From sequence record OR352953.1: a stretch of DNA of 64,000 nucleotides. One strand, given 5' to 3'. The notes beneath the pieces were generated by a model that worked only from the letters and a program-made list of their open reading frames with translations, made no database searches and had not been told where the DNA came from. Position numbers and translations under genes: made by a program. This document shows positions 4,682 to 63,223 of this stretch, piece by piece; positions within the stretch are counted from its first letter, which is position 1; every line of letters begins with the position of its first letter. Source of the stretch: Escherichia phage AV123.

Positions 4682-4683
4682 AC

Positions 4684-4713: not shown

Positions 4714-4716
4714 ATC

Positions 4717-11099: not shown

Positions 11100-11109
11100 A
11101 TTTCTCTCC

Positions 11110-12882: not shown

Positions 12883-12894
12883 ATGATTCTCCTA

Positions 12895-14108: not shown

Positions 14109-14119
14109 ATAACTCCTTG

Positions 14120-15767: not shown

Positions 15768-15776
15768 AATAACTCC

Positions 15777-16340: not shown

Positions 16341-16397
16341 ACTCCCTCCGTATTATTACTTTAGCATTTTTAGACTAAAAAGTCCAAATGGTTTTAC

Positions 16398-17078: not shown

Positions 17079-17088
17079 CTATATCTCC

Positions 17089-17598
17089 TTAGCGATAAAA
17101 TTGATGTTCTTTGTAGCGGTACACTAGAACCATATCTTTTTCCCAGTGTGCTCTTATTGTAGATTTTTTAAAGTATAATGCTCCTTTTGTAATATCTAAT
17201 GCAATTCGTAATTCTGGAAAATGCGTATCGAGATAAAGTAGACGTTCTGCTATAGCCTTAGCTTCCTTCCACTTATCACGTTCCATAACGTTGAATGTCT
17301 TTGTGTAAGAGAATTGTCCTTTTTGAAACAAAACTTCTTTTATAGTATCAGGGAAATATGAATCTCTAGCCCTATTCAATACTACATTACCAACAGCAGA
17401 CATACCGCGCTTTCCTTGATTACGACTTTCTGCATAGATTGCACAAGCTAATAGATTTTCTTTACTATCACGCTTTGTACACTTGTGAACTACTTTAGCA
17501 GTTTTTACGTTTGCAGCTTCGGCTTGCGCCACAACAGGTGTAAATGTAAAAGCAGTTAAGGATAGTAACGCAATTGCGACAAAGGTTTTTATTGACAA
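17089..17598 (-). CDS. Secreted cell-wall hydrolase (SleB / Hydrolase_2-like), candidate endolysin
   Basis: TTG start after AGGAGG; N-terminal signal peptide ending AQAEA; AVGNVVLNRARDSYFPDTIKEVLFQKGQFSY resembles the SleB-type core. Confidence 0.6.
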   Translation of the reverse strand: MSIKTFVAIALLSLTAFTFTPVVAQAEAANVKTAKVVHKCTKRDSKENLLACAIYAESRNQGKRGMSAVGNVVLNRARDSYFPDTIKEVLFQKGQFSYTKTFNVMERDKWKEAKAIAERLLYLDTHFPELRIALDITKGALYFKKSTIRAHWEKDMVLVYRYKEHQFYR

Positions 17599-17660
17599 AC
17601 TTGCCTCCTATTTTGTTAAACGAACTTTTATTGTAACACAGAAGAGGCTGTTTTGCAAGT

Positions 17661-17680
17661 GGAGGGGGATAACCCCCCTC
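17661..17680 (-). terminator. Hairpin terminator
   Basis: GGAGGGGGATAACCCCCCTC. Confidence 0.5.
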
Positions 17681-17690
17681 TTACATTCTG

Positions 17691-18293
17691 TTAGATACTG
17701 TAAACCTTCGTATGAGTTACTACACCATCTTCTACAAAATCAATACGTTCTTGATCCGTAACTAGTGCAGACAATACTTTAAATTTAATTGTTACACGTT
17801 CAAAAGCTGGTTGACCATCTTTAAGATAATTATGTTCAGTTGTTACTGTCTTGTTTACAAAATCAACTTTTGCTTTACCGTTTTCGCGCAAGTGGAATGT
17901 TTTTCCTGCTTTATACACAATTTCAACATTACCTTCGAGAGTAATTCCTTCAAAAAGTTCACCCTCTTCTTCATTTTCTTCATTTTTGAACAGACGACGA
18001 AACTCTTCCATATCAAGATAAACAACATCTTCAGAATAACTATCAGTAAGGTATGTCTTACCATCCATTAACCCGAAATATTGCCAGATTGCAGAATAAA
18101 CATCACTAGTTGATCCAAGGGTTTCTCTGAGTTTAGTTCCACGGATTACTTCATAAACTTCAAAATTGAAACCAGACTGCAAAGCATTAAACAGTACATC
18201 ACTAACTTCTAAAGCATAATCTTCATTGTTGTCAATATCCACAAGAAAATTACCGCTGCGAATAAGTTTTTGACCTTCTAAAGTAATACCCAT
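17691..18293 (-). CDS. Hypothetical protein
   Basis: GAGGAGAA RBS; acidic 200-aa product. Confidence 0.5.
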   Translation of the reverse strand: MGITLEGQKLIRSGNFLVDIDNNEDYALEVSDVLFNALQSGFNFEVYEVIRGTKLRETLGSTSDVYSAIWQYFGLMDGKTYLTDSYSEDVVYLDMEEFRRLFKNEENEEEGELFEGITLEGNVEIVYKAGKTFHLRENGKAKVDFVNKTVTTEHNYLKDGQPAFERVTIKFKVLSALVTDQERIDFVEDGVVTHTKVYSI

Positions 18294-18322
18294 TGTTTTC
18301 TCCTCTTCTATTTAAAATATGC

Positions 18323-18338
18323 GCCCCGAAGGGCGCTA
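18323..18338 (-). terminator. Hairpin terminator
   Basis: GCGCCCCGAAGGGCGC. Confidence 0.5.
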
Positions 18339-18345
18339 TGATTTA

Positions 18346-18942
18346 TTACTCGAACCAATCGTCGCCAGCGCCAAACGCTTTAACTACATCATAAATGTCA
18401 AGTCCAGCTTTACCTACACCATATGCTTTCAGTTTCCATTCGCTATCTTCCCGCACCAGGGAGGCAACGTGGCAAATGGTATTACCTGCAAGTTCTGGAG
18501 CCAAGAAGTCAAAATCCAGCAGTTCAACGTTACGTTCATCATCGAAGATTTTAAGGAAACCTTCGGTAGCGTGACCAAGGCGTTTCTTACCCGTTTCGTC
18601 ATCAATAGTGATTACGAATGCAATTTCCTGTGCTTCAGCAGAGATATTATCCAGTGTAACATCAATCTGCTCCATTTGTCCTACACCGTCACGAACATCT
18701 TCACCTGCAAAAGTAGAACGTTCAGGATCAAATTTCTGTGCGTAGCATACCAGGTGGCGAGGAGACAACAGTTCCGGCAGACCAGATGCATTGTGTCGGC
18801 AAATCAGAGCACTAACATCCAGATCCAGTTTTTCGTTAGATTTCCAAGAGAATTCCAGACGAATGCGTTTCAGTGCTGGTGCAATCTTTTTCAGAGAAAC
18901 TTTTTCGCTAGAACCTTTTTTCAGGGAAATTTTCTGAGTCAT
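18346..18942 (-). CDS. TerD-family protein
   Basis: N-terminal ISLKKGSSEKVSLKK and acidic GEDVRDGVGQME region resemble TerD signatures; about 198 aa. Confidence 0.65.
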   Translation of the reverse strand: MTQKISLKKGSSEKVSLKKIAPALKRIRLEFSWKSNEKLDLDVSALICRHNASGLPELLSPRHLVCYAQKFDPERSTFAGEDVRDGVGQMEQIDVTLDNISAEAQEIAFVITIDDETGKKRLGHATEGFLKIFDDERNVELLDFDFLAPELAGNTICHVASLVREDSEWKLKAYGVGKAGLDIYDVVKAFGAGDDWFE

Positions 18943-19014
18943 AATTTATTATCTCCTTTGTTGTTAATTTACGTTGTCTATTTTACTAATCTTTTCTACA
19001 AAGTCAAGCGTTTT

Positions 19015-19809
19015 TTACGCTTTTGCTCCAAATTTTTTAACCCACTCGCCAAACTCTTCGGATAGCAGTTTATTGTAAAGTTCTTCGTCAGACAAGGACA
19101 AATCTGCAATACCGATAAAATCAACGTTATCGTATTCTTTTGCCAAGTCTTTCAGGAATTTAAAGTTTGCATTACCTACACCAACCATAAACCAGTAAAC
19201 AGGAGTGTTGCGGTGTTTGTTCAGCAAACTACGTACTGCTGAAGTATCCATGTTCTCCCCGTCAGTTTGGAAGAAAATCATTGCAGGAGTACGATCAACT
19301 TGTGCATCAGTATCTACAACCTGTTCTACAACAGTACGTGTAACTTCTACACGTTCTTTTTTACCAGTTAGTTTAGCAAGGAAACCCTTAGCCGGAACTT
19401 CTTCATACTCAACGACTTCGCGTGTAATATTTTTCATAGGTACACTACCGAAGTATGTATCATAGATCTCTTGCATTACTGGAGCATAAGCTGTACCACC
19501 ATTGATGCAAACATTAGACATACAAGAGCCGACATAATCATCATATACATCAGCCGTTGCAGGAGGCAGTTCAAAAGAAGAACTATTGAAAGCCCACATG
19601 TCAATCTGTGCATTATCATCAAACTTCATACCAAACGGCAGCAGCTTACCTACAAAATCACTGACAGTGCCATCACGATACAGCTCACACATACTACCCG
19701 AAATATCTAAGGCGCTACCTACACGAAGAACAACATCGTTAATCTTTTTCTTACGCAGGGATACAGTAAGAGTTTCTTGACGTTTTTTAAGACTGATTTT
19801 ATTGGACAT
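19015..19809 (-). CDS. vWA-domain protein (TerY-like)
   Basis: MIDAS motif DISGSM after a hydrophobic strand; TerD-like ISLKK N-terminus. Confidence 0.6.
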   Translation of the reverse strand: MSNKISLKKRQETLTVSLRKKKINDVVLRVGSALDISGSMCELYRDGTVSDFVGKLLPFGMKFDDNAQIDMWAFNSSSFELPPATADVYDDYVGSCMSNVCINGGTAYAPVMQEIYDTYFGSVPMKNITREVVEYEEVPAKGFLAKLTGKKERVEVTRTVVEQVVDTDAQVDRTPAMIFFQTDGENMDTSAVRSLLNKHRNTPVYWFMVGVGNANFKFLKDLAKEYDNVDFIGIADLSLSDEELYNKLLSEEFGEWVKKFGAKA

Positions 19810-19810
19810 A

Positions 19811-20080
19811 TTATTTCTCCTTTCTGACTGTAATGTTAGTAACTTCTAAATCCACTTCTACCACTTCTGTATCATATAAAATACAGTTAAGTTGACCTCT
19901 TTGTGAACCGTTCAGACACATTGCTTGGTTTGTATTAACCTTAATAAACACTAAGTTTCTGAACGTATCTAAACCAGCATCTTGATAGGCAACATAATAT
20001 ACGAATGTATCACCTGTGTCAAGTTCTCCAAAACATTTAGGTTCATCTGATTTGTCGTCTTTGATATTAAATTTAAGCAC
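19811..20080 (-). CDS. Hypothetical protein
   Basis: GTG start after AAGGAGA. Confidence 0.45.
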   Translation of the reverse strand: MLKFNIKDDKSDEPKCFGELDTGDTFVYYVAYQDAGLDTFRNLVFIKVNTNQAMCLNGSQRGQLNCILYDTEVVEVDLEVTNITVRKEK

Positions 20081-20636
20081 TGTCTTCTCCTTTACCTGCT
20101 CTCAAGCCTAAATAGAAAGCCTCTCTGGTGATCTTTTGCAACTCGTTTAAAGAGATAGTTACAACTAAATCATCTTCAATTTCTAGCTTTGAGTCTTCTT
20201 CTGTCTCAATGCAAGTATTATGCACTTTGTGGTAAGGATTGTCAACACGTTTAAATTTATTATTTTCAGTGCTGAAGAAGCAATCTGGATCTTCTTCCCC
20301 ATCACCCCAACCCTGGTTAGGATCTTCTTCAGATCTTTCTGTTGGGATCTCGCCTGTAAAGTGCTCTTCTAATACCAGAGCAATCCCATCTCCAAGATCG
20401 GAAGAGAACATCAAATTACAAACTTCTTCCCAAGGCATAGACCACTTAAATCTTTTACGATTGCCATGTTTATCTTCTTCGTTAGAGAAAACACTACCAT
20501 AGCTATCATAATTCCCATACATCTCTTCGACAACCTTACCACCTTTCAAAAGAAATAGGTAGCAAGGAGAGCCATCGAAAGAGGTAGAAAGAGCAGCATT
20601 ACCAGACTCTTTGCACAAGAAACTAAAACACCCCAT
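20073..20636 (-). CDS. Hypothetical acidic protein
   Basis: Start overlaps upstream stop (TAATG). Confidence 0.45.
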   Translation of the reverse strand: MGCFSFLCKESGNAALSTSFDGSPCYLFLLKGGKVVEEMYGNYDSYGSVFSNEEDKHGNRKRFKWSMPWEEVCNLMFSSDLGDGIALVLEEHFTGEIPTERSEEDPNQGWGDGEEDPDCFFSTENNKFKRVDNPYHKVHNTCIETEEDSKLEIEDDLVVTISLNELQKITREAFYLGLRAGKGEDSA

Positions 20637-20836
20637 TATACACCAGCCTTAAGATCAATTAAAGCCAAAGTTGTTTCAGAGTGTGTTTGCTCGTCTACAG
20701 GTGCAGTCATATGATAATACAAAAAATCTTCGGCATCATACCAATCTGATTCTTGACCTTGTTTCCAACCATCAATGAAAGCATCTTCCATAATGGTTTG
20801 CAATTCTTCACGAGTTAAGTGAATATCTTTACTCAT
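20636..20836 (-). CDS. Hypothetical protein
   Basis: Coupled ORF. Confidence 0.4.
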   Translation of the reverse strand: MSKDIHLTREELQTIMEDAFIDGWKQGQESDWYDAEDFLYYHMTAPVDEQTHSETTLALIDLKAGV

Positions 20837-21069
20837 TACACATTCTCCTCTTTTACCAATTCCATTGTTGAATTGTCAAAACCATCTTTAGAAGAATAGG
20901 TATAGACAGCACGTAGTTCTCGCAGGACAGTGAATACATTAGGATCATCTAACCAAGCATCCTGGAGGAGAACATAACGATCTTCATTGTCATACTGGAC
21001 AGCAATCATAGAGCCAGACAGTTTGTAAATTTTAATATTCATAATATATTTCTCCTTAAAGTAGACCAC
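20836..21069 (-). CDS. Hypothetical protein
   Basis: Coupled ORF. Confidence 0.4.
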   Translation of the reverse strand: MVYFKEKYIMNIKIYKLSGSMIAVQYDNEDRYVLLQDAWLDDPNVFTVLRELRAVYTYSSKDGFDNSTMELVKEENV

Positions 21070-22159
21070 GTTTAACAGTTTGAATCATACCATCTTCAAG
21101 AGATTGCACTTCTTGAATGTAATCAATACGAGCAGCACGGGCTTCAGTGTTGATTCGGTTAGTTTCTTCCAACATTTTAACTAAGTTTTCTTGATCACGA
21201 CGCAATGTTTCAATATCCAATACTTGACGATTAGCAAGTTGTGTAGCTTCAATCTGGTTTTGTGCAGCCAGATCACTACCCATTGCAATAGCAGCATTAA
21301 ATTCATTCAGTACGTTGTTCTGTGTATCGGCTGCTTTCTTCTGGCGCAGACTTTCAATATACATAGAAAAGTTTGCAGAGTAAGCAGGAATAACATTGTT
21401 CACAATATTACGGGCTGATCGCATCAAACTTGCAGATACTTTCTGCATACTTTGTACACGTGGCCCCATCTGAACGCACAGTAAGCGTAAGGCTTTCAGG
21501 TCTGCAATACGAATTTCAAGCAGATCCATAGTGTCACGAGTACGTTGACGCTCTTCTACTTCATTTTCAGGTAGTGTATTAAGGCGAACTTCTTCTTTTT
21601 CATAAGTAGCTGTTAGAAGCTCTATATCCCTGTTTAAGCTAAGAGCATATTTTGCAATAGCCTCCTCTAAACGTTGCAGATATCGTAAAGAATCTTCTTC
21701 TTTTTTCAAGTCTGTTTGGAGTGTCTTTACCAAACCCTCAATACGATTATTGATGGTGTCAAATTCTCCAAACAAATCTTCTTTCATACCTAATACTTTC
21801 TTAACTAACTTACCTAAACCTTTAGATTGTTTAATAGAATTAGGATCAAGTTGCTTTGCTTGCTTAATAAGTGCAGTTAAACGTTCACTCATTTCATCTC
21901 CCTGAGATGAACGCTGGTGTTTAAGCACTTCAGCATTAAGGTTACGAAGAGTAAGTCCTGCATCAGCACCAACTTGTTCAATCTCTTCACGAGACATTGG
22001 AGGCAGCATTTGTACAGGTCGTGCAACAGCAGGGGCATATACAGGACTTGCATCCATAGCACTTGGAGCAAACAAAGACTTACTTTTTTCTGTTGTTGCC
22101 GTGAATACACTCATTTCAGACGGTTTGCTTTTTACGGCACTGATAAAAGGACTGGACAT
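21056..22159 (-). CDS. Coiled-coil protein, possibly TelA-like
   Basis: 367 aa, extended heptad-rich helical regions; size and context within Ter-type cluster fit TelA/KlaB; no diagnostic motif seen. Confidence 0.4.
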   Translation of the reverse strand: MSSPFISAVKSKPSEMSVFTATTEKSKSLFAPSAMDASPVYAPAVARPVQMLPPMSREEIEQVGADAGLTLRNLNAEVLKHQRSSQGDEMSERLTALIKQAKQLDPNSIKQSKGLGKLVKKVLGMKEDLFGEFDTINNRIEGLVKTLQTDLKKEEDSLRYLQRLEEAIAKYALSLNRDIELLTATYEKEEVRLNTLPENEVEERQRTRDTMDLLEIRIADLKALRLLCVQMGPRVQSMQKVSASLMRSARNIVNNVIPAYSANFSMYIESLRQKKAADTQNNVLNEFNAAIAMGSDLAAQNQIEATQLANRQVLDIETLRRDQENLVKMLEETNRINTEARAARIDYIQEVQSLEDGMIQTVKRGLL

Positions 22160-22227
22160 TCAATTTCCTCCATATTCTTTAGTAGATGGTGATACCTCTG
22201 TACCACCATCATAACACAAATTAAGTA

Positions 22228-23079
22228 TTAAACAAACATATCTAAATAATTTGTAGTAATAAATGCTCCATCTGCTTCCAGATTAACATAACCAGTAGCA
22301 TTAGTGGTTAAGAAATCCAGATCGAAGGACTCTTTAACACCCCGTACCTCAACACGAGAGATATCGAATACAGGTAGTGTAACAGCCTCTTCGTGCAATA
22401 CCGTACCTTTGTAGGTTGCCTTAATGATAAACTTGATATTACCCGTTCCAGCATCATACAAAACACTTTCAAACCCTTTGAGAGTATATTTATCACCAGA
22501 AGTGAAGTGCAAAGTTGCTTTGTTTACAGTACGTTTTTTACGAGGAGTTCCTTTCACACGTTTATGATCACTACGTTTTTTGTACTTAGGAATGAATACA
22601 AACGATACATTCTGAAGAAAGGTATCAACATCAAGGATTTTAATATCCTCTGTTGCAGCAAATTTTGAAGTCGTTGCATCAAAATGCTTTTCCCTGCGAT
22701 CATACATAAAGATATCAAACCGATCTTCTAAATCAAACAAATTATGTATTTTAATTTCAGAATGCTTGCGCATTGCAGCAACCTTGAACTCTTCAAAACG
22801 TGGGTGTTCTACAAGTTCTTCAAGTTTTACACCAAAGACAGTATATTGCTTCGGAGTTTTTTCTGGTGTTGGCATTACAGAAGCATAATCCCCGATTGCG
22901 CTCTTAAAGCAAAATTGTTCTTGACCTGTATTTTTACCAACGAATTTACAGTATTCATCATTGTGCATACTTTCCTTAGTAGTACCAACAAACTCAAAAC
23001 CATCTTTATTCTTCTCAAGAATTTCTTGATTAAAGATCCAACCTTCCAGGTGATATACTTTACCAACTTCTAGTTTCAT
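22228..23079 (-). CDS. Hypothetical protein
   Basis: AAGGAG RBS. Confidence 0.5.
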   Translation of the reverse strand: MKLEVGKVYHLEGWIFNQEILEKNKDGFEFVGTTKESMHNDEYCKFVGKNTGQEQFCFKSAIGDYASVMPTPEKTPKQYTVFGVKLEELVEHPRFEEFKVAAMRKHSEIKIHNLFDLEDRFDIFMYDRREKHFDATTSKFAATEDIKILDVDTFLQNVSFVFIPKYKKRSDHKRVKGTPRKKRTVNKATLHFTSGDKYTLKGFESVLYDAGTGNIKFIIKATYKGTVLHEEAVTLPVFDISRVEVRGVKESFDLDFLTTNATGYVNLEADGAFITTNYLDMFV

Positions 23080-23114
23080 CTGTTTCTCCTTCTTATTTAA
23101 TCTGTATTAAATTA

Positions 23115-23720
23115 TTAACGACGACGTGAGCTACTAAAACTACGTTTCGACGAAGAATAACTTTTCGAAGACTTACTATAAGAGCTAATAGGACTTGAGT
23201 AAGACTTACGAGCAGAGTAATCACTATTCACTTTTGTTGTTGACGGGCGTGAATACGTTTGTACACTTTGCTGCTTAATTGTGTTTTGTTTAGTGGTTGT
23301 ATATGTATTCCCTTGTTTATCATAAAAACGATGCTTTTGTGTTGTATATGCTTTACTATTAGTTGTAGGAGCAGCGTTGTTATTGATAATTGTTGTATTG
23401 CTACCGCCATCTCTATAACCACCACCGCCACTATTACCACTCAACATATGACCAAGAAGCATACCTGTAGCAAACTCACCTACACCAGAAGAACCACTGC
23501 CGCCTCCTTGCACAACAACTGTTGAAGGTTGTGCAGGTGCTGCTTGAACAACTTGAGGTGCAGGCTGATTTACATATTGTTCATCTACCATCTGATTTGG
23601 TGTTTGTTGGTAACGTTGATTTTGTACATTTTCAGAATCATCACAACCTACCAGCAATGCACTACCTAAAACAACTGCAACAATAAAAGATTTAATGTTT
23701 TTCATTTGTAACCCTCTCAT
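23115..23720 (-). CDS. Putative lipoprotein with low-complexity Q-, G- and S/Y-rich regions
   Basis: Signal peptide with lipobox LVGC; C-terminal YSSPISSYSKSSKSYSSSKRSFSSSRRR. Confidence 0.55.
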   Translation of the reverse strand: MRGLQMKNIKSFIVAVVLGSALLVGCDDSENVQNQRYQQTPNQMVDEQYVNQPAPQVVQAAPAQPSTVVVQGGGSGSSGVGEFATGMLLGHMLSGNSGGGGYRDGGSNTTIINNNAAPTTNSKAYTTQKHRFYDKQGNTYTTTKQNTIKQQSVQTYSRPSTTKVNSDYSARKSYSSPISSYSKSSKSYSSSKRSFSSSRRR

Positions 23721-23898
23721 TTAAAGTCTCAACACAATTTTTAAAATCCCTAGAGAAACAATACATCTGTTCTCCGTTCCTGTTGATAGTAATTGTATGG
23801 TTATCAATGTATGTTGTCAAGATAAAAATCAAACAAAATAACCCTAAAGCAAAACAAATATTTTCAAACAGAATCCAAAGAACACGTAAAACTACCAT
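23692..23898 (-). CDS. Small hydrophobic protein (tentative)
   Basis: GAGGTGA RBS; fills otherwise empty gap upstream of lipoprotein gene. Confidence 0.3.
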   Translation of the reverse strand: MVVLRVLWILFENICFALGLFCLIFILTTYIDNHTITINRNGEQMYCFSRDFKNCVETLNERVTNEKH

Positions 23899-23937
23899 CA
23901 GATCACCTCAACAAAGCCCCCGAAGGGGCTTAATGAA

Positions 23938-24915
23938 TTAAGCAACAGTCTGGTCTTCTTTTTCAGGGAAGATTAAACTTGCAATAACACCCAACCCAAG
24001 AGTACCTAACACAATATACATACTGATCGTCGGATCAATGTGTGCTGGCAGGAAACTCATTTTTGCGTGCAGAGTTTCTGCAAACGGGTGATACATCAGT
24101 TTTACACCCACAAATACCAGGACTACGATAACTGCTTTCTCCAGATGAACCAAATACTTCAGTGCAACACTAAGAACAAAGAACAGAGCACGTAAACCTA
24201 AGATTGCACAGAGCATCGAAGAGAACACCAGTAGAGGTTCTTGTGTCACTGCAATTACTGCTGGAACAGAGTCTACTGCAAAGATTACGTCAACCATTTC
24301 CATTACAAACACACAAACCAGAGCCGGAGTTGCTACACGAACACCATTTTTGATTGTGAAGAACTTCTCACCATCCATCTGATCAGATACAGGGAACAGC
24401 TTACGAACAATGCGAGTAGCCCAGTGTTTAGAGTAATCAACTTCTGCATCATTATCTCCAGCGAATACCATTTTAGCCGCACAGAAAAGGATGACAGCAC
24501 CGAAGAAGATATTAACATACCAGCCCAAACTCAACAAGTAAGTACCTACTGCTACAAACACACCTCGGAAGACAATCGCACCTGCAATACCCCAAAGTAG
24601 AATCTTGTGCTGCAAGTGTGTGCTTTTAATACCAAAACTTGCGAAGACTGCCACAAATACTACTAAGTTATCTACAGAAAGAGATTTCTCCAACACATAC
24701 CCACTCAAAAACAAGCTCGCAAAATCAGCACCGTGTTGGAAGTATACAAAACCATAGTAGGCTAATGATACCCCAATCCAGAAAATTGACCAGCCAATTG
24801 CAGATTTAAATGAAATTTCTTTGTTTTCTCTGTGTCCAAAGAAGTCAATACAAATCGACAAGACTAAAATACCCACTAAAACAACCACATCAATAATTGG
24901 GAAACCCAGTTGCAT
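23938..24915 (-). CDS. TerC-family integral membrane protein
   Basis: Multi-pass hydrophobic profile; LEKSLSVDN matches the TerC E-x-SLS-x-DN motif. Confidence 0.75.
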   Translation of the reverse strand: MQLGFPIIDVVVLVGILVLSICIDFFGHRENKEISFKSAIGWSIFWIGVSLAYYGFVYFQHGADFASLFLSGYVLEKSLSVDNLVVFVAVFASFGIKSTHLQHKILLWGIAGAIVFRGVFVAVGTYLLSLGWYVNIFFGAVILFCAAKMVFAGDNDAEVDYSKHWATRIVRKLFPVSDQMDGEKFFTIKNGVRVATPALVCVFVMEMVDVIFAVDSVPAVIAVTQEPLLVFSSMLCAILGLRALFFVLSVALKYLVHLEKAVIVVLVFVGVKLMYHPFAETLHAKMSFLPAHIDPTISMYIVLGTLGLGVIASLIFPEKEDQTVA

Positions 24916-24933
24916 TCTTTTCTCCTCTTTAAT

Positions 24934-24952
24934 GCGGAGGACAATCCTCCGC
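24934..24952 (-). terminator. Hairpin
   Basis: GCGGAGGACAATCCTCCGC. Confidence 0.45.
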
Positions 24953-24992
24953 TCTATGTCTTATACTATAAACTGTTTTTAAAGAAAGTCAA

Positions 24993-25241
24993 CTAGTTCA
25001 GTTCTGTAATTTTAAGTTTATCTTCTTTGTTAATGACAGGGAAAGCTACAGCATCACCTACGTCATCAATAAAGCAAATAGCAATACCACCTTCCACTTT
25101 GCTAATCTGACCATTAAAGGCGTGATACGGGGCAGGAACTTGATCTCCATCTTCAAGGAGAATAGCCTCGTAAACCTTGCCGATAGTACAATCACGAGTG
25201 TTTCTAAATTTTTCAAGCACTTCAACATTTACTTTACGCAT
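24993..25241 (-). CDS. Hypothetical protein
   Basis: GAGAGGA RBS. Confidence 0.45.
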   Translation of the reverse strand: MRKVNVEVLEKFRNTRDCTIGKVYEAILLEDGDQVPAPYHAFNGQISKVEGGIAICFIDDVGDAVAFPVINKEDKLKITELN

Positions 25242-25255
25242 ATAAAAATCCTCTC

Positions 25256-25462
25256 TTATTTGTTAGATTGAAAGATACCACGAAGTACCGCAAGAATGAA
25301 CGTCACACAGACTACACTCCAAAACGTTACAGGAACATGATGCCAGTCTAAGCCGATAATGTCAATCATATAGTTGTATGCTAAAAGCAGTAGCCAACTA
25401 GGGATTAACACAATCAAAAACACAACAATAAAACAACCTAATACTGCTAAAACACCTGCCAT
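25256..25462 (-). CDS. Small membrane protein
   Basis: AAGGAG RBS; two hydrophobic helices. Confidence 0.45.
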   Translation of the reverse strand: MAGVLAVLGCFIVVFLIVLIPSWLLLLAYNYMIDIIGLDWHHVPVTFWSVVCVTFILAVLRGIFQSNK

Positions 25463-25471
25463 ACTTTCTCC

Positions 25472-26188
25472 TTATTTCAGTTTGTAAACAATTACATTTA
25501 AACCTTTGTTTACTAGAGTTTCTTCGATCATAAGTTTTACAATACTCCAAGAACCTCCAGCCAAACCACAACCAAGCATTGGTAAACCTACAATTTTACC
25601 GCCTGAAGATACAACATCGTCTCCCATACTATCTAACGCATTGTAGATAGCTTCATAATTCAGGTCACGCTTACCTTCCTCACGACGACTATAACCATAT
25701 TGTCCATATAAATTATAAATTGTCAAATTGTTTTCTGTATACTTAGTAAACGTACCTAATTTTTTATAATCACCACGTTTAGTGGCACAATCTGCTTTAA
25801 ACGCACCAGGCCACTTACTTTTAATTTTTGGTGCAATACCACTACCCATAGTGCAAAAACAGTTACAGCAGTGTGCTATAGCGTCTATATCGCCTCTCTC
25901 GGCTGCTGCTAAAAGATCACCGTATACCTCAATGATACCTGCTGGATAACTTGTTACAATTTCATCTTCCCAGTACATTTTCTCTACACCACCGATCAGT
26001 GCAAAGTTTTGTGTAATGCGATCATCAATATAGTTAAGACCTGAAACATACACAGCATATTCATCCTGTGCTGTAATACCTTGTACACGAATTCTTAAGA
26101 CACCATCTTTATCTGTTGCTACACGCCCAAAATCTTTTTCTGTAATATTGGTGATAGGATCTCCGAAAGTCATTACTTTATTAGACAT
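25472..26188 (-). CDS. Macro-domain protein (OARD1/TARG1/Poa1-like ADP-ribose processing)
   Basis: IAHCCNCFCTMGSGIA and LPMLGCGLAGGSWSIV...VIVYKL parallel the H-x-C-N...G-x-GIA and GCGLD...VYTL motifs of that macro family; start ATG overlaps upstream stop (ATGTCTAA). Confidence 0.7.
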   Translation of the reverse strand: MSNKVMTFGDPITNITEKDFGRVATDKDGVLRIRVQGITAQDEYAVYVSGLNYIDDRITQNFALIGGVEKMYWEDEIVTSYPAGIIEVYGDLLAAAERGDIDAIAHCCNCFCTMGSGIAPKIKSKWPGAFKADCATKRGDYKKLGTFTKYTENNLTIYNLYGQYGYSRREEGKRDLNYEAIYNALDSMGDDVVSSGGKIVGLPMLGCGLAGGSWSIVKLMIEETLVNKGLNVIVYKLK

Positions 26189-27038
26189 AATAATCCCCTT
26201 TAACATTAGATTTGTTGATAATGTTGCTTTCAAAAAATTGACGTAGGAAATCAAAGTTCTCTTTATATTTTTCAATGTTATTGTAGCCTTCTGCAAGGCA
26301 ACCAAAGAACAGTTGTTCTACATAATACAAAGGAAGCTGTGAAAGTGCAATTTTAAAATCAACTTCGCTTTGACTCATTAGATACTTAATAGGACGAACC
26401 AAACATTTAGCATCAGTTTCTTGCTTAATCATCTTAATAAAAGCTGCCAGGTTATTGATATAGTTGAAGTTAAGTGCAGCTTCGGTGTTGGCTTCTGTAC
26501 CTTCATACTTTGCAAAGTACAGGAAAAACGTATCGTTTTCAACACCTTCTTTGTCTAAAATTTCAATAAGTTTTTCTTCGTGCGTTCCTGTAATATTAAC
26601 ATCATCAATGAAAATCAGAGTTTTATTACCCCAGAAATCACGATTGATAGAGAAAGTGTCACCATCGATCAAAGCCTTACGATCTTCTTTGCTAAGAAAT
26701 CCATAATCATTGATATAGCTCACTTTACGATGAACGATATCCCACTCCACTGGTTTACCACCTTTGATAGAGATTAGGTAGTTGAGGTGATCTACAAAAT
26801 GTTCAGATAACACTGTAGCTGCATTTTTCACATAGTTATATGGAGATGGAATAACAACAAAACTTTCATTTACCAGTCGTTCTTCATACTTGGAAAAGAA
26901 ACTTTCAGCCAGAATGCGCCCCATTCTTTTTGCTGCCTGGTTACTACCAAACTTTAGTTTGGAATAATCTGCAATGTTAAATTTTGCTTCCTTCAGGTTA
27001 GTAAAAGTATTAGCAAAATGTTGAATTTGATTACGCAT
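26181..27038 (-). CDS. Phosphoribosyltransferase-like protein
   Basis: TLIFIDDVNITGTHEE resembles the type I PRTase PRPP-binding loop. Confidence 0.5.
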   Translation of the reverse strand: MRNQIQHFANTFTNLKEAKFNIADYSKLKFGSNQAAKRMGRILAESFFSKYEERLVNESFVVIPSPYNYVKNAATVLSEHFVDHLNYLISIKGGKPVEWDIVHRKVSYINDYGFLSKEDRKALIDGDTFSINRDFWGNKTLIFIDDVNITGTHEEKLIEILDKEGVENDTFFLYFAKYEGTEANTEAALNFNYINNLAAFIKMIKQETDAKCLVRPIKYLMSQSEVDFKIALSQLPLYYVEQLFFGCLAEGYNNIEKYKENFDFLRQFFESNIINKSNVKGDYYV

Positions 27039-46394: not shown

Positions 46395-46510
46395 TGTGTT
46401 AATGAGAATCATTTTCGTTTGTAAATGAGAATCATTATCATTTAACTATGTAAGTGATAATCATTCTCACTAAGAGAATGAGAATCATTAGCAAATGAGA
46501 ATTTTTCTCA
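46395..46510. promoter_or_regulatory. Cluster of Fur-box-like palindromes
   Basis: AATGAGAATCATT (46401), AATGAGAATCATTATCATT (46424-46442), GATAATCATTCTC, and perfect inverted repeat AATGAGAA-TTT-TTCTCATT (46492-46510). Confidence 0.5.
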
Positions 46511-56690: not shown

Positions 56691-57074
56691 ATGAGCAATA
56701 TCATCAACCTGGCGGCTACTGTAAACGGTAAAGACTTTAACGGCGCTGTAGACCGTGATCCTATGTGGTGCTTGTCAGTGTTTAAAGGTGACTTGGTTGA
56801 AGTTAGAACAACCGAAGGGTATAGCGATGATTATAAATGCGAGATCCATTTACACAACTGGTACACGGGTAAAACTTATGCACTGAATCATGCGTTTATC
56901 GGCAAGGTTGAATATAGAGAAATGATCGACGAAGAAACGGGGCAAGATTTTAGCGAGCATGTTTATATTCGTTCAGAAACATTAGCCGAACGTTTGATCG
57001 AGAAAATGAAAGCAAAAAATAAAATTAATTTATCTCATTGGATTGATATAACAAACGATCCAGCTTATCAGTAA
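56691..57074 (+). CDS. Hypothetical protein
   Basis: ACGAGGAA RBS. Confidence 0.5.
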   Translation: MSNIINLAATVNGKDFNGAVDRDPMWCLSVFKGDLVEVRTTEGYSDDYKCEIHLHNWYTGKTYALNHAFIGKVEYREMIDEETGQDFSEHVYIRSETLAERLIEKMKAKNKINLSHWIDITNDPAYQ

Positions 57075-57088
57075 ATAACATTTCAAAC

Positions 57089-57116
57089 AAGGGCGCTTAT
57101 TGCGCCCTTTCTTTTT
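57089..57116 (+). terminator. Hairpin terminator closing the island
   Basis: AAGGGCGCTTATTGCGCCCTTTCTTTTT. Confidence 0.7.
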
Positions 57117-57321
57117 ACCTAAATAAAGATGATAGCTTTTACCTATCAAAAACGTTCACCGAAAAAAGTGAATAGATCGCGGTATCGAGCTAATCAAGGA
57201 GCAGATGAACAACCATACCATGAAGATCATAAGGCGCTTACAACGTGTTTTAGACCGCTTATTTTTAATTTCTTCATGTAATTACCTGGCAAAAACAGCC
57301 TTTTTCTTGTCTTTCCTCTTA

Positions 57322-57397
57322 AATGATAATCATTCTTATTTATAGCTGATTATTTATGCAATAAATTGCATAATGCAATAATGAGAATCATTCTTAA
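57322..57397. promoter_or_regulatory. Fur-box-like sites flanking an 18-bp palindrome
   Basis: AATGATAATCATT at 57322-57334 (exact Fur-box core), TAATGAGAATCATTCTTA at 57378-57395, palindrome TATGCAATAAATTGCATA between them. Confidence 0.5.
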
Positions 57398-57689
57398 CTT
57401 AAGACCATCTAACCTATAAAATAATAAGTTATCTAACTAAATTAAAACTAATTATCTCACCTTTATTTATAACTTACTGTTACTATCTCATTGATAACAT
57501 TGTATTAAACAATAATAACTAATATAAATCATTACTAAGCTAAATATAATCTATCTAACCCTTAAAACTACAATTATAATCTATCGAATTGTTGCACAAA
57601 GTAACTATTAAATTGTTAGTAACATTACTAAATAATTCACATCCTATCTATTTATGATCTAATCTTTACCTTCCTATCTATTACTTAGA

Positions 57690-57737
57690 TAATCATTTCA
57701 TACAGTAACCATTTCATGTAGTAATCATTCCATACAA
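57690..57737. repeat. Three tandem 16-bp iteron-like repeats
   Basis: TAATCATTTCATACAG / TAACCATTTCATGTAG / TAATCATTCCATACAA. Confidence 0.55.
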
Positions 57738-58241
57738 TAACTATAACAAGAAATATAATTCGCAAGCGTATCATTAGCAGCCTATGCCGGACACATAGGC
57801 GGCTAATAATAACGCAACTACACACCCCACATAATAACCATCACCGATAGTTATTATTTGTGCTTATGTAGCTTGCAACAATTGCAAGCGCAACAATATA
57901 CTAGGGTATATTGTATCCCTTACATTGTTGCGGTGCGTTATTATTAGCTAATGTTTAGAACATTGGCTATAATATAAGCTATCCAATAATAAACATGGTG
58001 AATAATGACACTGATGATCATAATGCGCCACCCTCCAGGGGGCGCTATGTGAACACAAAGAAATCTTTCTTGTCAAGAAAAATATCACCATTATTGCGCA
58101 AAATTATTTATATCTGAATAGATGATTTTTCATACTATTGCCCCCTTGATTATTACCATTTGTTGAGCCTACTTTCTTAAAAGCGCAATAAAATAGAATT
58201 ATATTGATTTTTAGTCGGTTTTATAGTACAGAAAGTATGCA

Positions 58242-58455
58242 AATGATAATCATTATCAGCTATCTTCCACGGGTGGCACTATTTCACACCAGATCATTTC
58301 ATTTGGCAAGGTGTATATAGATGTTTAGACTTGCCAAGCCATTGATTTCCTTAGAATTTATCTGTTTTGTTGTGAGTAGTACCTTTCTTGCTTAGAAAAT
58401 AATCAAAAGTCTTATAAGTCATTGAATGATAATACAAATGATAATTATTCTCATT
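58242..58455. promoter_or_regulatory. Fur-box-like sites upstream of the 58.8-kb gene block
   Basis: AATGATAATCATTATC at 58242-58257 (16/16 to positions 4-19 of GATAATGATAATCATTATC); AATGATAATTATTCTCATT at 58437-58455. Confidence 0.5.
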
Positions 58456-58814
58456 GATATTTGAGGGGGACGGTCGGCAGAAATCGGGGGGTGCTGAAAA
58501 TCGCGTTAAGCACCTCTCGCAAGCGAGCAGTATTTTGCGGCAAGTTATTGATATTATTGACTTTACGCTTATGAAAAGGGGGTGTGTCGAAATAAATCGG
58601 GTATACCGGAAAATTTTTGTGGCATAGATATTTATTTGTCTATATTATGTACAAAGGGGTGTGTTAAAAATAATAGGTATATATAGAATAATTGATAGGG
58701 AATATCTATACTAATTCCTCCATTAATGATATTCCTATGCTACTGCTCTTGTAATAGATGAAAAGACGCTGTATGATGTGTGGCATGAAACGTAAACTTA
58801 TAAAGGAGTCTGAT

Positions 58815-59180
58815 ATGTGTGTTCCTCTTAGCAGTCCACTGCTGTTAGAATTTTACAAAGCATGGATGCAAGATCATTCCTCAATGCATCGTGAGAATGT
58901 TGGTTTGTGTATTTGCCTTATGGATTATCTGGCAACCACTATGTCAAAGAAAAAACCTACGCGAGAAGATATAGAACATTTCAAAATGGTTCGCAGTAAA
59001 ACGCTGGAAGAGATGAAATTGCAATTCACGTGTGCTGGGCTATCCTCCTTCCTGCCCTTTAATGATGATCTTCTGTGTTATGAAGATGAAGGTAAGAAAC
59101 ATTCTTGCCATACTAACCCAGGGAGATTGCAGTGGGTGAAAGACAGACTCGAAGATGCAAATAATGCTTGCATTGAATAG
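58815..59180 (+). CDS. Hypothetical protein, paralog family member 1
   Basis: AAGGAG RBS before ATG 58815; shares LLxFY, GLCxCL, LxPFN, RxQWVxDR blocks with 60961..61329 and 61953..62537. Confidence 0.5.
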   Translation: MCVPLSSPLLLEFYKAWMQDHSSMHRENVGLCICLMDYLATTMSKKKPTREDIEHFKMVRSKTLEEMKLQFTCAGLSSFLPFNDDLLCYEDEGKKHSCHTNPGRLQWVKDRLEDANNACIE

Positions 59181-59250
59181 AAATGCCTGTACACTGTGTT
59201 CCATAAGATATGCAATATCGCGCATAACAAACTACTAATGAGAGGTGTAA

Positions 59251-59568
59251 ATGAGAACCTTAGCTTTGTATATTGATCCTCACTCCATTCGAGAAATGCG
59301 AGATGTACAACAGGATTATGAATTCTACCCAGAAATTTGTGAACGCTATGAAACTATTCTTAGTTCTGTAGAAGATCCAGATACTAGTGAAACAGGTGTT
59401 TCCCACTTACTGTGGATGTTGAATGAAATTCAGGATGGGTGTAATGATATGTCTGAAACCAAACGCCATCGTTGGCTAGGCTATATTCAGGGTGTTATGG
59501 TTATGAAAAACCTTATTACAGTGAATGATGAACGTAATGCTACACGCCCCGTCTTTAATGGAGCATAA
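59251..59568 (+). CDS. Hypothetical protein
   Basis: GAGAGGTG RBS. Confidence 0.5.
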   Translation: MRTLALYIDPHSIREMRDVQQDYEFYPEICERYETILSSVEDPDTSETGVSHLLWMLNEIQDGCNDMSETKRHRWLGYIQGVMVMKNLITVNDERNATRPVFNGA

Positions 59569-59569
59569 C

Positions 59570-59785
59570 ATGAAAAGCATTCAGGTGTGTATTGAAAATA
59601 ATTGTGGTTATCTGGGATTGACACATGTTGCTTTCCCTCTTATGTTAGATGCCGATATCGCTTACAGCGGAGTTGCTTATGTGTCATTCAAGACAATGAG
59701 CCAAGTACCTGGCTGGAAGTGGGAAGTAGTTGATGTTGTTGAAGGAGAAGACTATGTTTTCCTTCCACACGAATATACTGTTTAA
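59570..59785 (+). CDS. Hypothetical protein
   Basis: Start at MKSIQV, 1 nt after upstream stop. Confidence 0.45.
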   Translation: MKSIQVCIENNCGYLGLTHVAFPLMLDADIAYSGVAYVSFKTMSQVPGWKWEVVDVVEGEDYVFLPHEYTV

Positions 59786-59799
59786 AAGAGGAAAAGAAG

Positions 59800-59976
59800 A
59801 TGGATAAAGAGACTACTGTGTACTTAGTAACAAAGAATACCCCAGGCTGGAGCCAATGCAGCACTGTACCTTACAAAATCTGTGCAACACTAGAACTAGC
59901 ACAACGTGCAGAAGCAGAAGTGAATGCCATGCAATACAGCTATGGTGAAATCATTCCTTTTACTCTTGAACAATAA
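59800..59976 (+). CDS. Small ORF (58 aa), not in track
   Basis: AGAGGAAAAGAAG RBS. Confidence 0.4.
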   Translation: MDKETTVYLVTKNTPGWSQCSTVPYKICATLELAQRAEAEVNAMQYSYGEIIPFTLEQ

Positions 59977-59987
59977 GGAGTTGTGTA

Positions 59988-60440
59988 ATGTTTGAAATTG
60001 GTAAAGTGTATCGTTTTAAAAACCCATCTTATATCCGTAAGTTTGCTAACGTGTCTGAGTGCAATAGCAGGATTGCTTCTTTTTTAGGTGATTCCTATTT
60101 TCGTGTATTAGATGTGGATGATTGGTATGGTGTCACTGCTTTGCAATCCTTAGCAGGAGAACAAGAAATTATCGCTCAAAATGAAGGAGACTTTCTTCAG
60201 TGTTACACGTTGCTTGCAAAAAGTGAGTTTGAGTATTTTGTAGAAGTTTTAGAGGAAGCACCAAAAAGTAAACACGAAGAGAAATACCTGCTTGTAGTGG
60301 ATGGAGTTCCGATCATGGAAACCATCTCCCGTGAGGAAGTTGAAAAAGAGGCGAAACGTTACAAGCTGAATCGTACACAGAGTGTAGTTGAAGTCTATTC
60401 TCTTGTTGGTGTTGCAGATATTAGTGTGAACATTGTATAA
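59988..60440 (+). CDS. Hypothetical protein
   Basis: AAGGAG RBS. Confidence 0.5.
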   Translation: MFEIGKVYRFKNPSYIRKFANVSECNSRIASFLGDSYFRVLDVDDWYGVTALQSLAGEQEIIAQNEGDFLQCYTLLAKSEFEYFVEVLEEAPKSKHEEKYLLVVDGVPIMETISREEVEKEAKRYKLNRTQSVVEVYSLVGVADISVNIV

Positions 60441-60651
60441 TATATGTGTAATGACAGATACATTCTTCGTGTATCTGATAAGTCCCCTATGTTTGACTGG
60501 CGGGCTGGTGGCTACTAGCTCCGATGCAAGGTCTGACAGACGTGGAAAAGGAGGCTTATGTGTATACAAAAGAAGAGATAGAAAGTAGCCTTTATTTGAC
60601 AGATAACATTAAGAATGGTATCTTTGAGTGTAAATTGAAAGGAGAGGAAGA

Positions 60652-60951
60652 ATGACTATTACAGAAAAACTGCGCTGTATTGCAAAGCAAAGTGGAGAAG
60701 GCTTATGGTTTCCTATTGAGGAAATTATTCAGGACTGTTATGATCAGGCTAAGACTGGCAAATACTCCAAAGCATTTAAACCATCTGTTTTCGGTTTGGA
60801 TGATTATCCAAAAAATGAACAAGCAAAGAAACGACAAGTTGATTTGATTGATCTGGCTATGGAAGCACTACGAGAGCATGGACTTAGTAAGGTGTATGCT
60901 TTAAACACCAAAGAGGGCTTTGTAGATTCAGTGATCGTAGACTGGTATTAA
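60652..60951 (+). CDS. Hypothetical protein
   Basis: AAAGGAGAGG RBS. Confidence 0.5.
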
Positions 60952-60960
60952 GGAGAAGTC

Positions 60961-61329
60961 ATGCAAGAGAATAGTAAAGTGTGTAGCATGAAAAGCAGCC
61001 CCTATTTGCTACAATTTTATGAGTGGTGGTTAGAACAAGAAGATACAAACTTTAGCAAAAAGCATTATGGTCTTTGCACGTGTCTTGTAGACTTCTTATA
61101 CAATATTGCTTGGATAAAAGATGTTGAGAATGTAGCAAACCTCCAGTCCTCTGTACGAGAGGAAATGAAGGAACAGTTTAAGAAAGCGGGTTTGAACCAT
61201 TTACACCCATTTAATACAGATTTCTCACATTACTTTACGGAAACAGAGTTAGGCATTGCACACCTTAACAAAGAACGTGTACAATGGGTGATTGATCGTA
61301 TTCGTGATATGGAGGAATACAATGGTTAA
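60961..61329 (+). CDS. Hypothetical protein, paralog family member 2
   Basis: AAGGAG RBS; conserved blocks as in member 1. Confidence 0.5.
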   Translation: MQENSKVCSMKSSPYLLQFYEWWLEQEDTNFSKKHYGLCTCLVDFLYNIAWIKDVENVANLQSSVREEMKEQFKKAGLNHLHPFNTDFSHYFTETELGIAHLNKERVQWVIDRIRDMEEYNG

Positions 61330-61540
61330 GTTTAAAACTTTCTGTGCGATTACTGTTTGCCTTATTCTTGCATACGTGTTATTCTCTGGTATCGTTCGTT
61401 TAGGCGAGTATATGGCAAGAGAAGCTCGTGAAAGTGCAGCTAAAAAAGAACAGTGTATTGTGTTCAAGCATCAAAGAGATGCTGAAAAGTTTCTCGCACT
61501 TGATTGTAATCGCTATGTATCTTATCAAATGTATGAGTAA
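61322..61540 (+). CDS. Small membrane-anchored protein
   Basis: GGAGGA RBS before ATG 61322; N-terminal TM helix. Confidence 0.45.
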   Translation: MVKFKTFCAITVCLILAYVLFSGIVRLGEYMAREARESAAKKEQCIVFKHQRDAEKFLALDCNRYVSYQMYE

Positions 61541-61549
61541 GGAGGATTT

Positions 61550-61774
61550 ATGGTAAAACGTCTGGAATGGGATGCGTGTACTGCTCACGCTTGTCACTGT
61601 GATATTGTTGAAGACCCTAATGGAGAAATGGTGTATTATGAGGATTACGAAGCATTGCATAATGCTGTGATCGCTTTACTGGATGATATTAGCTCACGCT
61701 ATCCAGGACAACAGTTTACGTGTCCACATATCCAACTGTTAGCCAAACTTACGGAGTATCCAAGTGTTCCATAG
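61550..61774 (+). CDS. Hypothetical protein
   Basis: AAGGAGGA RBS. Confidence 0.5.
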   Translation: MVKRLEWDACTAHACHCDIVEDPNGEMVYYEDYEALHNAVIALLDDISSRYPGQQFTCPHIQLLAKLTEYPSVP

Positions 61775-61775
61775 T

Positions 61776-61943
61776 ATGGGTATCCCTGAACAACTGCTAT
61801 TTATTGTAGGATTAGTAGGTTTATTGGCGGCTGGCGCTAAAGCCGCTTCTCACACGCATCACATAATGTTAAGATTTCTATTCCTACTCCCTTCTATCCT
61901 TGTATTATTAGTCATACTGATTGATAACATTTTTCACAATTAA
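61776..61943 (+). CDS. Small membrane ORF (55 aa), tentative
   Basis: Fills gap between genes; two hydrophobic helices; no clear RBS. Confidence 0.25.
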   Translation: MGIPEQLLFIVGLVGLLAAGAKAASHTHHIMLRFLFLLPSILVLLVILIDNIFHN

Positions 61944-61952
61944 GGAGAGGCT

Positions 61953-62537
61953 ATGAGTAAAGTTATACCAAGCAGTTATGAATTATTACAGTTTTATGTG
62001 TATTATATAGACTGGGTTAGTAGATCGAATGTTAAAGACAATGCGATGTTTAGTAAAAACATCTGTTTAACAGAAAGTATCTTCCGTTACTGGCACACAG
62101 GTAGAAAGTGTACACACAGTGAAGCTATGCGCATTGTAGGAGAATATCTGGAGCAATTGCAAAAAGCAGAGCTACCTGTCCTTCACCCATTCAATGAATC
62201 TAAAGAAGAATTAGAACAAGAATGTAGGGAAGGTAAGTGCCATTTGAATGAAAAACGTATCGAATGGGTGAGGCAACGTTTAGCCGATGCAGGGAATCCT
62301 CCTAGTGACTCTGACTATACGTGGTATGATGTAGAGGGTTTAGTTCAAGGTTTTGAGGCTTGTGCTATAGGTAATACCAACTTTGCCAAAGTTTTATGCG
62401 AGGTTTATGATCTGGCAGATAAAATCCGAAATCACGGATGGAAACAAGAGCATAAAGAATCATATGAACGCCTTGACAAGATTTTCAAACAGATCTATTC
62501 TAACCACAAAGAGATGTTCCAAATGGAGGATGTGTAA
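61953..62537 (+). CDS. Hypothetical protein, paralog family member 3 (extended)
   Basis: AAGGAGAGG RBS; conserved blocks plus C-terminal extension. Confidence 0.5.
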   Translation: MSKVIPSSYELLQFYVYYIDWVSRSNVKDNAMFSKNICLTESIFRYWHTGRKCTHSEAMRIVGEYLEQLQKAELPVLHPFNESKEELEQECREGKCHLNEKRIEWVRQRLADAGNPPSDSDYTWYDVEGLVQGFEACAIGNTNFAKVLCEVYDLADKIRNHGWKQEHKESYERLDKIFKQIYSNHKEMFQMEDV

Positions 62538-63223
62538 TGAAAGAGATTATGTTTGAAGGGCATCGTTACGAAGTTCCAGACAATGCAAATTTCATGGCTC
62601 GTGATATCACTGGAGATGTGTTCTGGTTTGAAGATGAACCTGTGTTTTCTTCGAACAAACACTGGTTTTCACAACAATCTTCTTCGGAAAATATGACTTT
62701 TGGCTACGTAGAGCCTAAAGTGCGCTGCAAAGCAGCTTCTTCTTTGGTAAAAATTTCCCAAGATGATCAAGAAAATACTCCAGATGTTGTTAGTGCACTA
62801 CTGAAATACATTGCAGAACTTGAGAATAAAATTAAAGAAGCAGAAACTAAGGTGAAAGCACGATCAGCCATCATTGAAGCTATGTCTGAACGTATCTTAG
62901 AGCTAGAAGATTTGTGTGGAGAGGCTTATCAAGTGGTCGGTGCACTGGCTTATGAAGCACAAATGTTTGAAACTTCAGAACAAGTTTCACATATGTTAGA
63001 TAATTTAAGTGAATGTAAAATGATTCATGATGATGTATTGCCATTTTGTTGCAATGTTAACAAAACAGAGCAAACAGAAGATTCAGAAACAGTTTATGTT
63101 CCGCTGATGTGTGTTCCAGATCATTTAAAAGGTGTATTCTCTTGTAAATGGTCACTGTTGAGCGTTACTAATTGTGGTGAAAACTATTCTGCCAACATTG
63201 AATTGCTAAAACACGTTAAATAA
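62537..63223 (+). CDS. Hypothetical protein
   Basis: ATGA coupling. Confidence 0.5.
   Translation: MKEIMFEGHRYEVPDNANFMARDITGDVFWFEDEPVFSSNKHWFSQQSSSENMTFGYVEPKVRCKAASSLVKISQDDQENTPDVVSALLKYIAELENKIKEAETKVKARSAIIEAMSERILELEDLCGEAYQVVGALAYEAQMFETSEQVSHMLDNLSECKMIHDDVLPFCCNVNKTEQTEDSETVYVPLMCVPDHLKGVFSCKWSLLSVTNCGENYSANIELLKHVK

Follow-up and report, generated by a model that had tools for sequence, protein, structure and literature searches.

The closest described counterparts of the genes considered here, three paralogs (A, B, and C) in a 64,000-nt stretch of the Escherichia phage AV123 genome (OR352953.1; hereafter, the window), are found in N4-like podoviruses and P22-like phages. N4 gp3 lies in a left-end block with gp1, gp2, and the RNAPII subunits, which are early gene products (PMC4496689). 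The EaA-type proteins of P22-like phages (Lederbergvirus), often annotated as "ead/Ea22-like", are encoded between abc2/erf and int, within the early-left operon, and consist of 250–400 amino acids, with an N-terminal helical stalk and Pro/Ala linkers. The early genes of N4 are transcribed by an injected virion RNA polymerase, an enzyme that phi92-like myoviruses, the group to which the window phage belongs, are not known to have. Gene "accordions" have been described for viral host-range and anti-defence genes, such as poxvirus K3L and the amplified accessory genes of T4, and in these cases the antagonised host factor is known and the expansion was observed under selection. Lambda Ea22, a pro-lysogenic product of the exo–xis region, is also an early accessory modular protein from a similar type of neighbourhood; its versions in Shiga toxin (Stx) phages are reported to swap C-terminal domains, and the C-terminal domain whose structure was solved is a dimer of mixed alpha/beta type with the order beta-beta-alpha-beta-beta-alpha (PMC10834534). 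The three window genes share a domain with N4 gp3 and with an internal module of the EaA-type proteins, and they represent a known kind of phage gene family, early and accessory, whose copy number can expand.

The region containing the paralogs is 94–97% identical to ~40 phi92-like myoviruses (Justusliebigvirus, Stephanstirmvirinae). Paralog A (58815..59180, + strand; 121 amino acids) corresponds to gp001 of the relative UAB_1. Paralog B (60961..61329, + strand; 122 amino acids) consists of the bare domain and is the ortholog of phi92 gp006 and UAB_1 gp008, and paralog C (61953..62537, + strand; 194 amino acids), the ortholog of phi92 gp010 and UAB_1 gp011, carries the domain in residues 1 to ~113, followed by a C-terminal extension. 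Each open reading frame (ORF) has a strong, canonical Shine–Dalgarno sequence 6–8 nt 5' of its ATG (AAAGGAGtctgatATG for A at 58815, TAAGGAGaagtcATG for B at 60961, and TAAGGAGaggctATG for C at 61953). For gene A, 58815 is the best start because the other in-frame ATGs on its 5' side (58758 and 58785) lack such a sequence and the UAB_1 annotation contains the identical 366-nt frame. A sequence-only reading of this DNA had proposed a family of three paralogs here on the basis of shared, ordered blocks, and pairwise BLASTP bore this out, with E values of 5e-26 for A and B (39% identity over 115 amino acids), 2e-11 for B and C (30% over 114 amino acids), and 3e-9 for A and C (40% over 48 amino acids). 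This similarity is far above chance, and A, B, and C are homologous, true paralogs. The blocks LLxFY..W, LxPFN, and RxQWVxDR were present in all three products, the last in the form RIEWVRQR in C. The fourth block named in that reading, GLCxCL, takes the form GLCICL in A and GLCTCL in B; C lacks the block, having NICLTE in its place, and was the only one of 115 aligned family members without an in-register G-L-C triplet. The C-terminal extension attributed to the third product is present and comprises ~75 amino acids. No fourth copy of the domain was detected in the 64-kb window, either with a hidden Markov model (HMM) of the three paralogs or later with a profile of 18 homologs.

The extent of the family became apparent only by profile searching. 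A word-indexed search recovered only 16 relatives, whereas an exhaustive profile search identified 1193 representatives of 50%-identity clusters at E<=1e-3, of which 456 were found at E<=1e-10. Most members are 100–120 amino acids long and share a domain of ~105 amino acids. The three paralogs matched the 18-sequence profile with E values of 3e-55 (A), 2.6e-52 (B), and 1.3e-58 (C). Among the PHROG clusters, phrog_2510 was matched by all three (A, 6.5e-22; B, 1.3e-25; C, 2.4e-17), as was phrog_6418, and C corresponded over its full length to phrog_27059 (E 2e-138). Thus, one domain family is split over several clusters (2510, 27059, and 6418) without annotation, and neither the link to N4 gp3 and EaA nor the fold or the copy-number dynamics are recorded there. 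In addition to free-standing copies, the domain occurs in tandem in two-domain proteins (P0017, P0018, and P0021) and one three-domain protein (P0050), is fused to DUF551 in P0057, and forms part of mosaic proteins of 250–400 amino acids (P0104, P0118, P0119, P0123, P0124, and P0135), in which a helical segment precedes it at the N-terminus and other modules follow, with Pro/Ala-rich linkers in between. According to tblastn, P22-like phages carry the genes of these mosaic proteins under the annotation "EaA protein"; in a prophage contig, such a gene is part of the early-left operon, whose order is N, cIII, Arf, Erf, Abc2 … EaA-like … DUF551 … int. One metagenomic homolog, P0020 (176 amino acids), has an N-terminal hydrophobic extension of ~55 amino acids that resembles two transmembrane segments, and may be a membrane-anchored variant or the product of a mis-called start.

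In the N4-like podoviruses, the free-standing copies are annotated as "N4 gp3-like". N4 gp3 itself (104 amino acids) matched the 115-sequence profile with E 2.7e-21 and Gutmeister gp8 with E 7e-27. These Schitoviridae proteins have the same domain, size, and motifs (LCxxL, LPFN, and CHLNxxRxxW) as the window paralogs, and N4 gp3 and the Gutmeister gene likewise lie near the left genome end among early genes. However, they occur in a single copy and show ~30% identity, whereas there are three to nine copies in phi92-like and Phapecoctavirus phages. In the EaA-type proteins, the domain is internal (residues 86–200 of P0104 and 89–193 of P0135), in contrast to the free-standing A and B and to C with its short helical tail. 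Nevertheless, phi92 gp006 and gp010, N4 gp3, and the EaA module are best regarded as one family. Further member phages, found through structure matches in BFVD and by tblastn, infect Rhizobium, Burkholderia, Achromobacter, Delftia, Pectobacterium, Klebsiella, and Shigella, and all of their matching proteins are labelled uncharacterised. The hosts span the alpha-, beta-, and gamma-proteobacteria. The domain family is widespread and phage-restricted, and is found in the early or accessory-early gene blocks of three unrelated phage types. Neither the three paralogs nor the 115 members matched Pfam, and among 20 long or fused members the only Pfam match was DUF551 in one fusion partner. In particular, Ead_Ea22 (PF13935) was matched by none of the three paralogs, the 115 members, or the long fusions, including P0104 and P0135. 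There was no match in NCBIfam or PADLOC, no relative in the PDB by sequence profile or by fold, and no profile or structural match to catalogued anti-defence or defence families. Lambda Ea22 is not homologous in this domain because its C-terminal domain is alpha/beta, whereas ours is a six-helix bundle with no PDB match by sequence or fold; the Ea22 papers concern a different domain.

Structure prediction had been proposed as a check on the family, and AlphaFold2 returned a confident six-helix model of paralog B (18-sequence alignment; mean predicted local distance difference test [pLDDT] score, 87.3; predicted template modelling score, 0.81), with helices at residues 14–25, 31–35, 38–53, 58–75, 88–97, and 104–121. 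Relatives in BFVD aligned with template modelling scores of 0.6–0.75. The domain of paralog C was also modelled well (pLDDT 81–97 per 10-residue block and >=89 from residue 11) and has the same helix order as B, except that the short second helix was not called, leaving five helices of >=4 residues. Across the 115 diverse members (numbering of paralog B), P83, F84, and R106 are invariant (R106 in 115 of 115), and L16, F19, Y20, W23, G37, L38, C39, E68, Q72, F73, L78, N103, W109, and V110 are conserved in at least 90%. C39 (114 of 115) lies at the N-terminus of helix 3, and the polar residues E68, Q72, and N103 are conserved in at least 92%. Paralogs A and B hold all these residues; C holds all but the in-register G-L-C and has extra residues between Y20 and W23. 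Conservation is limited to helix 1, the GLC turn, the segment EM..QF..AGL…PFN, and the last helix, and positions 24–36 and 43–67 have no consensus and vary in length. A zinc or metal site with four conserved Cys or His residues was not found, C39 alone being near-invariant, with H101 at 72% and a preceding Cys present only in the majority. DNA mimics of the Ocr/ArdA type have a strongly acidic surface (pI ~4) and occur on both plasmids and phages; with isoelectric points (pI) of 5.9 (A), 5.3 (B), and 5.6 (C) and a presence in 1 of 72,556 plasmid records, the window family does not show the features of such anti-restriction proteins.

The C-terminal extension of paralog C (62298..62534, + strand; residues ~116–194) is predicted to consist of a short disordered linker and three helices, with pLDDT <50 at residues 116–120, ~58–74 in the helices (124–136, 143–159, and 165–184), and ~37 in the last four residues. 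It was ruled out as a degenerate second domain (hhalign probability of 0.3% against the family profile), had only marginal PHROG matches (24126, E 3.5e-4), and yielded no homologs when searched alone. A weak match at A145 62260–62730 to the profile positions of the C tail (E 8e-7), which might have represented a module shared with a gene past the window end, was dismissed when a BLASTP comparison with the PATM ortholog revealed no similarity.

The copy number differs even between close relatives, being three in the window and four in phages with 97% identity to it. UAB_1 also has three, whereas A145, which is 95–98% identical across the window, and PATM have four, those of A145 being B, C, and the neighbouring pair A and A'. 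Two copies are present in an unrelated 141-kb contig, and the largest expansion was observed in the Phapecoctavirus phiWec186 (LC739535.1), with nine copies at 11070–26901, in a 16-kb stretch of small early-type ORFs; three of these nine are in tandem at 11070–12259, directly past a long non-coding region. Compared with A145, the window lacks 496 bp (A145 56863–57359). Window 58815–59143 is 94.5% identical to A145 gene A, and window 59130–59275 is 93.8% identical to the 3' end of A145 A'. In terms of gene A itself, nt 1–329 match A145 A, and from nt 316 onward the sequence corresponds to the 3' end of A' and to the DNA beyond it. The two blastn segments overlap at nt 316–329, which correspond to the 14-mer CAGTGGGTGAAAGA (59130..59143, + strand), and a three-way DNA alignment showed that the switch of parent occurs inside this microhomology. 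The codons at the junction encode QWVKD, and no motif of the family is better conserved. Codons 1 to ~105 are thus from the ancestral A, and the last ~16 codons (…DRLEDANNACIE) and the 3' DNA are from A'. Because its 5' part matches A and its 3' part matches A', window gene A is an in-frame A/A' chimera, and it arose when two tandem paralogs underwent unequal crossover. The same fusion is seen in UAB_1 gp001. The gene that follows paralog A is 318 nt long in the window and UAB_1 and 459 nt long in PATM (4624–5082, "GAP32_442-like"), and the indel comparison covers window 59143–59275 and A145 56863–57504. Since the length of this next gene differs between relatives, as do the spans matched by a 5-kb query in different records (4.7–5.9 kb), the first few kilobases past the terminus are an indel hotspot.

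The paralogs themselves diverged long ago. A and A' are mutually closest, with 51% identity, whereas B is nearer to the proteins of other phages (45–48%) than to A (39%), and C is distant from all (<=34%). No DNA similarity was detected among the paralogs beyond a 21-nt block, and by these measures they are evidently old duplicates. Between orthologs in phages that are 95–98% identical, the ratio of nonsynonymous to synonymous polymorphism (pN/pS) was 0.07–0.34 for the three genes (0.07–0.22 for B), similar to that of their neighbours, although based on small counts. These values indicate that each copy is under purifying selection. The sequence-only reading had called the paralogs "diversifying"; this applies to their old divergence, to the copy numbers of three, four, and nine, and to one unequal crossover, but not to their current substitutions. 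The window family resembles the gene accordions in that its tandem, diverged paralogs shift in number by unequal recombination between close relatives, and differs from them in that the paralogs are old (30–50% identity).

The genomic position of the paralogs bears on when they are expressed. The UAB_1 record opens with the physical left terminus of the packaged DNA. Its position 1 aligns to window position 58166, and its repeat_region 1–343 places the counterpart of the 343-bp direct terminal repeat at 58166..58508 in the window. The direct terminal repeat of BME3 is of similar length, at 342 bp (PMC12210895). Paralog A is the first gene past the left terminal repeat, ~650 bp from the genome end. 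The + strand genes on its 3' side form an unbroken run; they are small, they often overlap, and all belong to PHROGs of unknown function. This left-end block of small, tightly packed genes, including A, B, and C, is most likely the first to be transcribed. The description of the paralogs as early-type has indirect support, from the position of A directly after the left repeat and from the location of homologs, which lie in the early region of N4 and in the P22-like pL operon.

These observations are consistent with several roles. That diverged paralogs of this type are host-factor binders or anti-defence proteins, as the sequence-only reading proposed, is plausible and fits the architecture and the context. 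Specifically, we assign a probability of roughly 0.4 to the reading that they are stoichiometric binding modules that act on host components right after DNA entry, in host take-over or counter-defence. The domain would then serve for binding rather than catalysis, its conserved helical scaffold carrying two variable segments, rich in indels, that would confer partner specificity. It would bind host take-over targets or anti-phage defence proteins immediately after DNA entry and neutralise or redirect them, and separate paralogs could serve separate partners or variants of a partner. Avidity could be increased by tandem fusion or, in EaA/Ea22-type proteins, by the coiled-coil stalk to which the domain is attached. 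Several points weigh against this binding role. No positive selection was detected between close orthologs (pN/pS 0.07–0.34), and the near-invariant polar residues (C39, R106, E68, Q72, and N103) suit a catalytic or ligand site at least equally well. Broad anti-restriction proteins often occur on plasmids, and the domain was found in only one of the 72,556 plasmid records. In the literature searched (EaA/P22, Stephanstirmvirinae genomes, N4 gp3, and CRISPRi-ART), no function has been assigned to EaA, N4 gp3, or the phi92 genes, and no partner, phenotype, or expression timing has been reported for any family member.

A more specific proposal, which we consider somewhat doubtful, is that the domain is a new-fold effector for counter-defence or host take-over whose C39/E68/Q72/N103/R106 site engages a component common to Proteobacteria. 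The arrays of three to nine copies, reshuffled by crossover, would then act as a repertoire against host immune variants, and N4 gp3 and the EaA module would be the same weapon. The same five residues could instead form the site of a small enzyme, or of a small-molecule or nucleotide binder such as an immune-signal sponge, with additional copies raising the dosage or the range of ligands. The invariance of R106, P83, and F84, the presence of C39 in 114 of 115 members, and the conservation of E68, Q72, and N103 (>=92%) across phages of very different hosts argue for this, given that a target of such wide conservation is less likely to be a fast-evolving defence protein than a universal component or a small molecule; the tandem and oligomer-tethered forms would also suit sponges. 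However, no enzyme or known sponge resembles the domain in fold or sequence, H101 is shared by only 72% of members, C lacks the GLC triplet and is nevertheless under purifying selection, and the conserved residues may merely cap helices and pack the core. On balance, an enzyme or sponge seems unlikely.

Less probable still is that the paralogs are not weapons against the host but regulators of the phage's own early transcription or replication, similar to N4 gp1 and gp2 or the pro-lysogenic lambda Ea22. Their place in a putative early block, like that of N4 gp3 beside gp1 and gp2, would suit such regulators; a DNA-binding role is unlikely because the proteins are mildly acidic (family median pI, 5.2; median net charge, −4). 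Finally, that the genes are redundant or near-neutral passengers without individual roles in a recombination-prone accessory region would explain why their number varies between near-identical phages, why one copy could be deleted without obvious cost (UAB_1 and the window phage being viable), and why the region is indel-rich across relatives, but it is very improbable given that the retained copies have pN/pS well below 1 with intact Shine–Dalgarno sequences and frames, that orthologs of B and C are retained throughout the group (clusters P0002 and P0005, with 150–206 members), and that the crossover gave an in-frame, full-length chimera rather than a pseudogene.

Compared with what was already known, namely that these genes are labelled "hypothetical" in >100 records and are clustered in PHROGs, what is new is that phi92 gp006 and gp010, N4 gp3, and the EaA module are unified, that they have no known fold relative, and that the family shows three-, four-, and nine-copy dynamics with a captured crossover. 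A common domain (>1000 clusters at 50% identity) among the early genes of N4 and P22-like phages has been missing from Pfam, NCBIfam, and the PDB. The unified family offers tractable experimental systems for one question, and the copy-number variation and the captured crossover make it a reasonable candidate for anti-defence and host-range screens. By itself, the family reveals no new biology, and if its members are ordinary redundant accessory genes, its value is limited to the annotation of ~100 deposited genomes.

Some further features of the region were noted. The 1.7 kb on the 5' side of A (57110–58815), which span the genome terminus, are AT-rich and contain no credible ORF. They include a 25-nt repeat in three copies (AAGGGGGTGTGTCGAAATAAATCGG-like; 58463, 58576, and 58653), a 37-nt repeat in three copies (58005, 58237, and 58432), a perfect 15-nt inverted repeat (57802–57816 / 57934–57948), and a hairpin at 57883–57924, and these repeats and the hairpin are probably packaging, replication, or early-promoter elements. 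Sigma-70-like matches in the upstream region were not enriched (39, compared with 30 +/- 5 expected from shuffles), and no promoter is claimed. Arrays of palindromic motifs resembling the E. coli Fur box, the consensus of which is GATAATGATAATCATTATC, were found at 46398–46492, at 57322–57338 and 57377–57396, at 58239–58257, and at 58437–58455. The best of these sites were GCAAATGATAATCATTATC, which matches at 17 of 19 positions and lies within the terminal repeat, and GTAAATGAGAATCATTATC, which matches at 16 of 19. The core pattern had nine matches, compared with 0.2 expected, and all the sites were in two non-coding regions. The terminal-region sites are also present in UAB_1, PATM, and A145, and the 46.4-kb array is also present in A145. 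These arrays could be host Fur sites through which early transcription responds to iron, could serve to titrate Fur, or could be bound by a phage protein as operators or iterons.

Between A and B, the gene at 59988–60440 encodes a product of 150 amino acids that matches phrog_3710 (E 1e-38) and, weakly, phrog_2980, "goF mRNA metabolism modulator" (E 3e-6); a goF-like gene is annotated in the corresponding region of one related record (Eryne). Furthermore, four records that are 95–98% identical across the window (MG065639, MG065645, MG065656, and MG065689) are deposited as UNVERIFIED "Campylobacter phage", with C. jejuni from chicken as the host. These host labels are probably wrong, for example because E. 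coli phages were co-isolated from the same samples.

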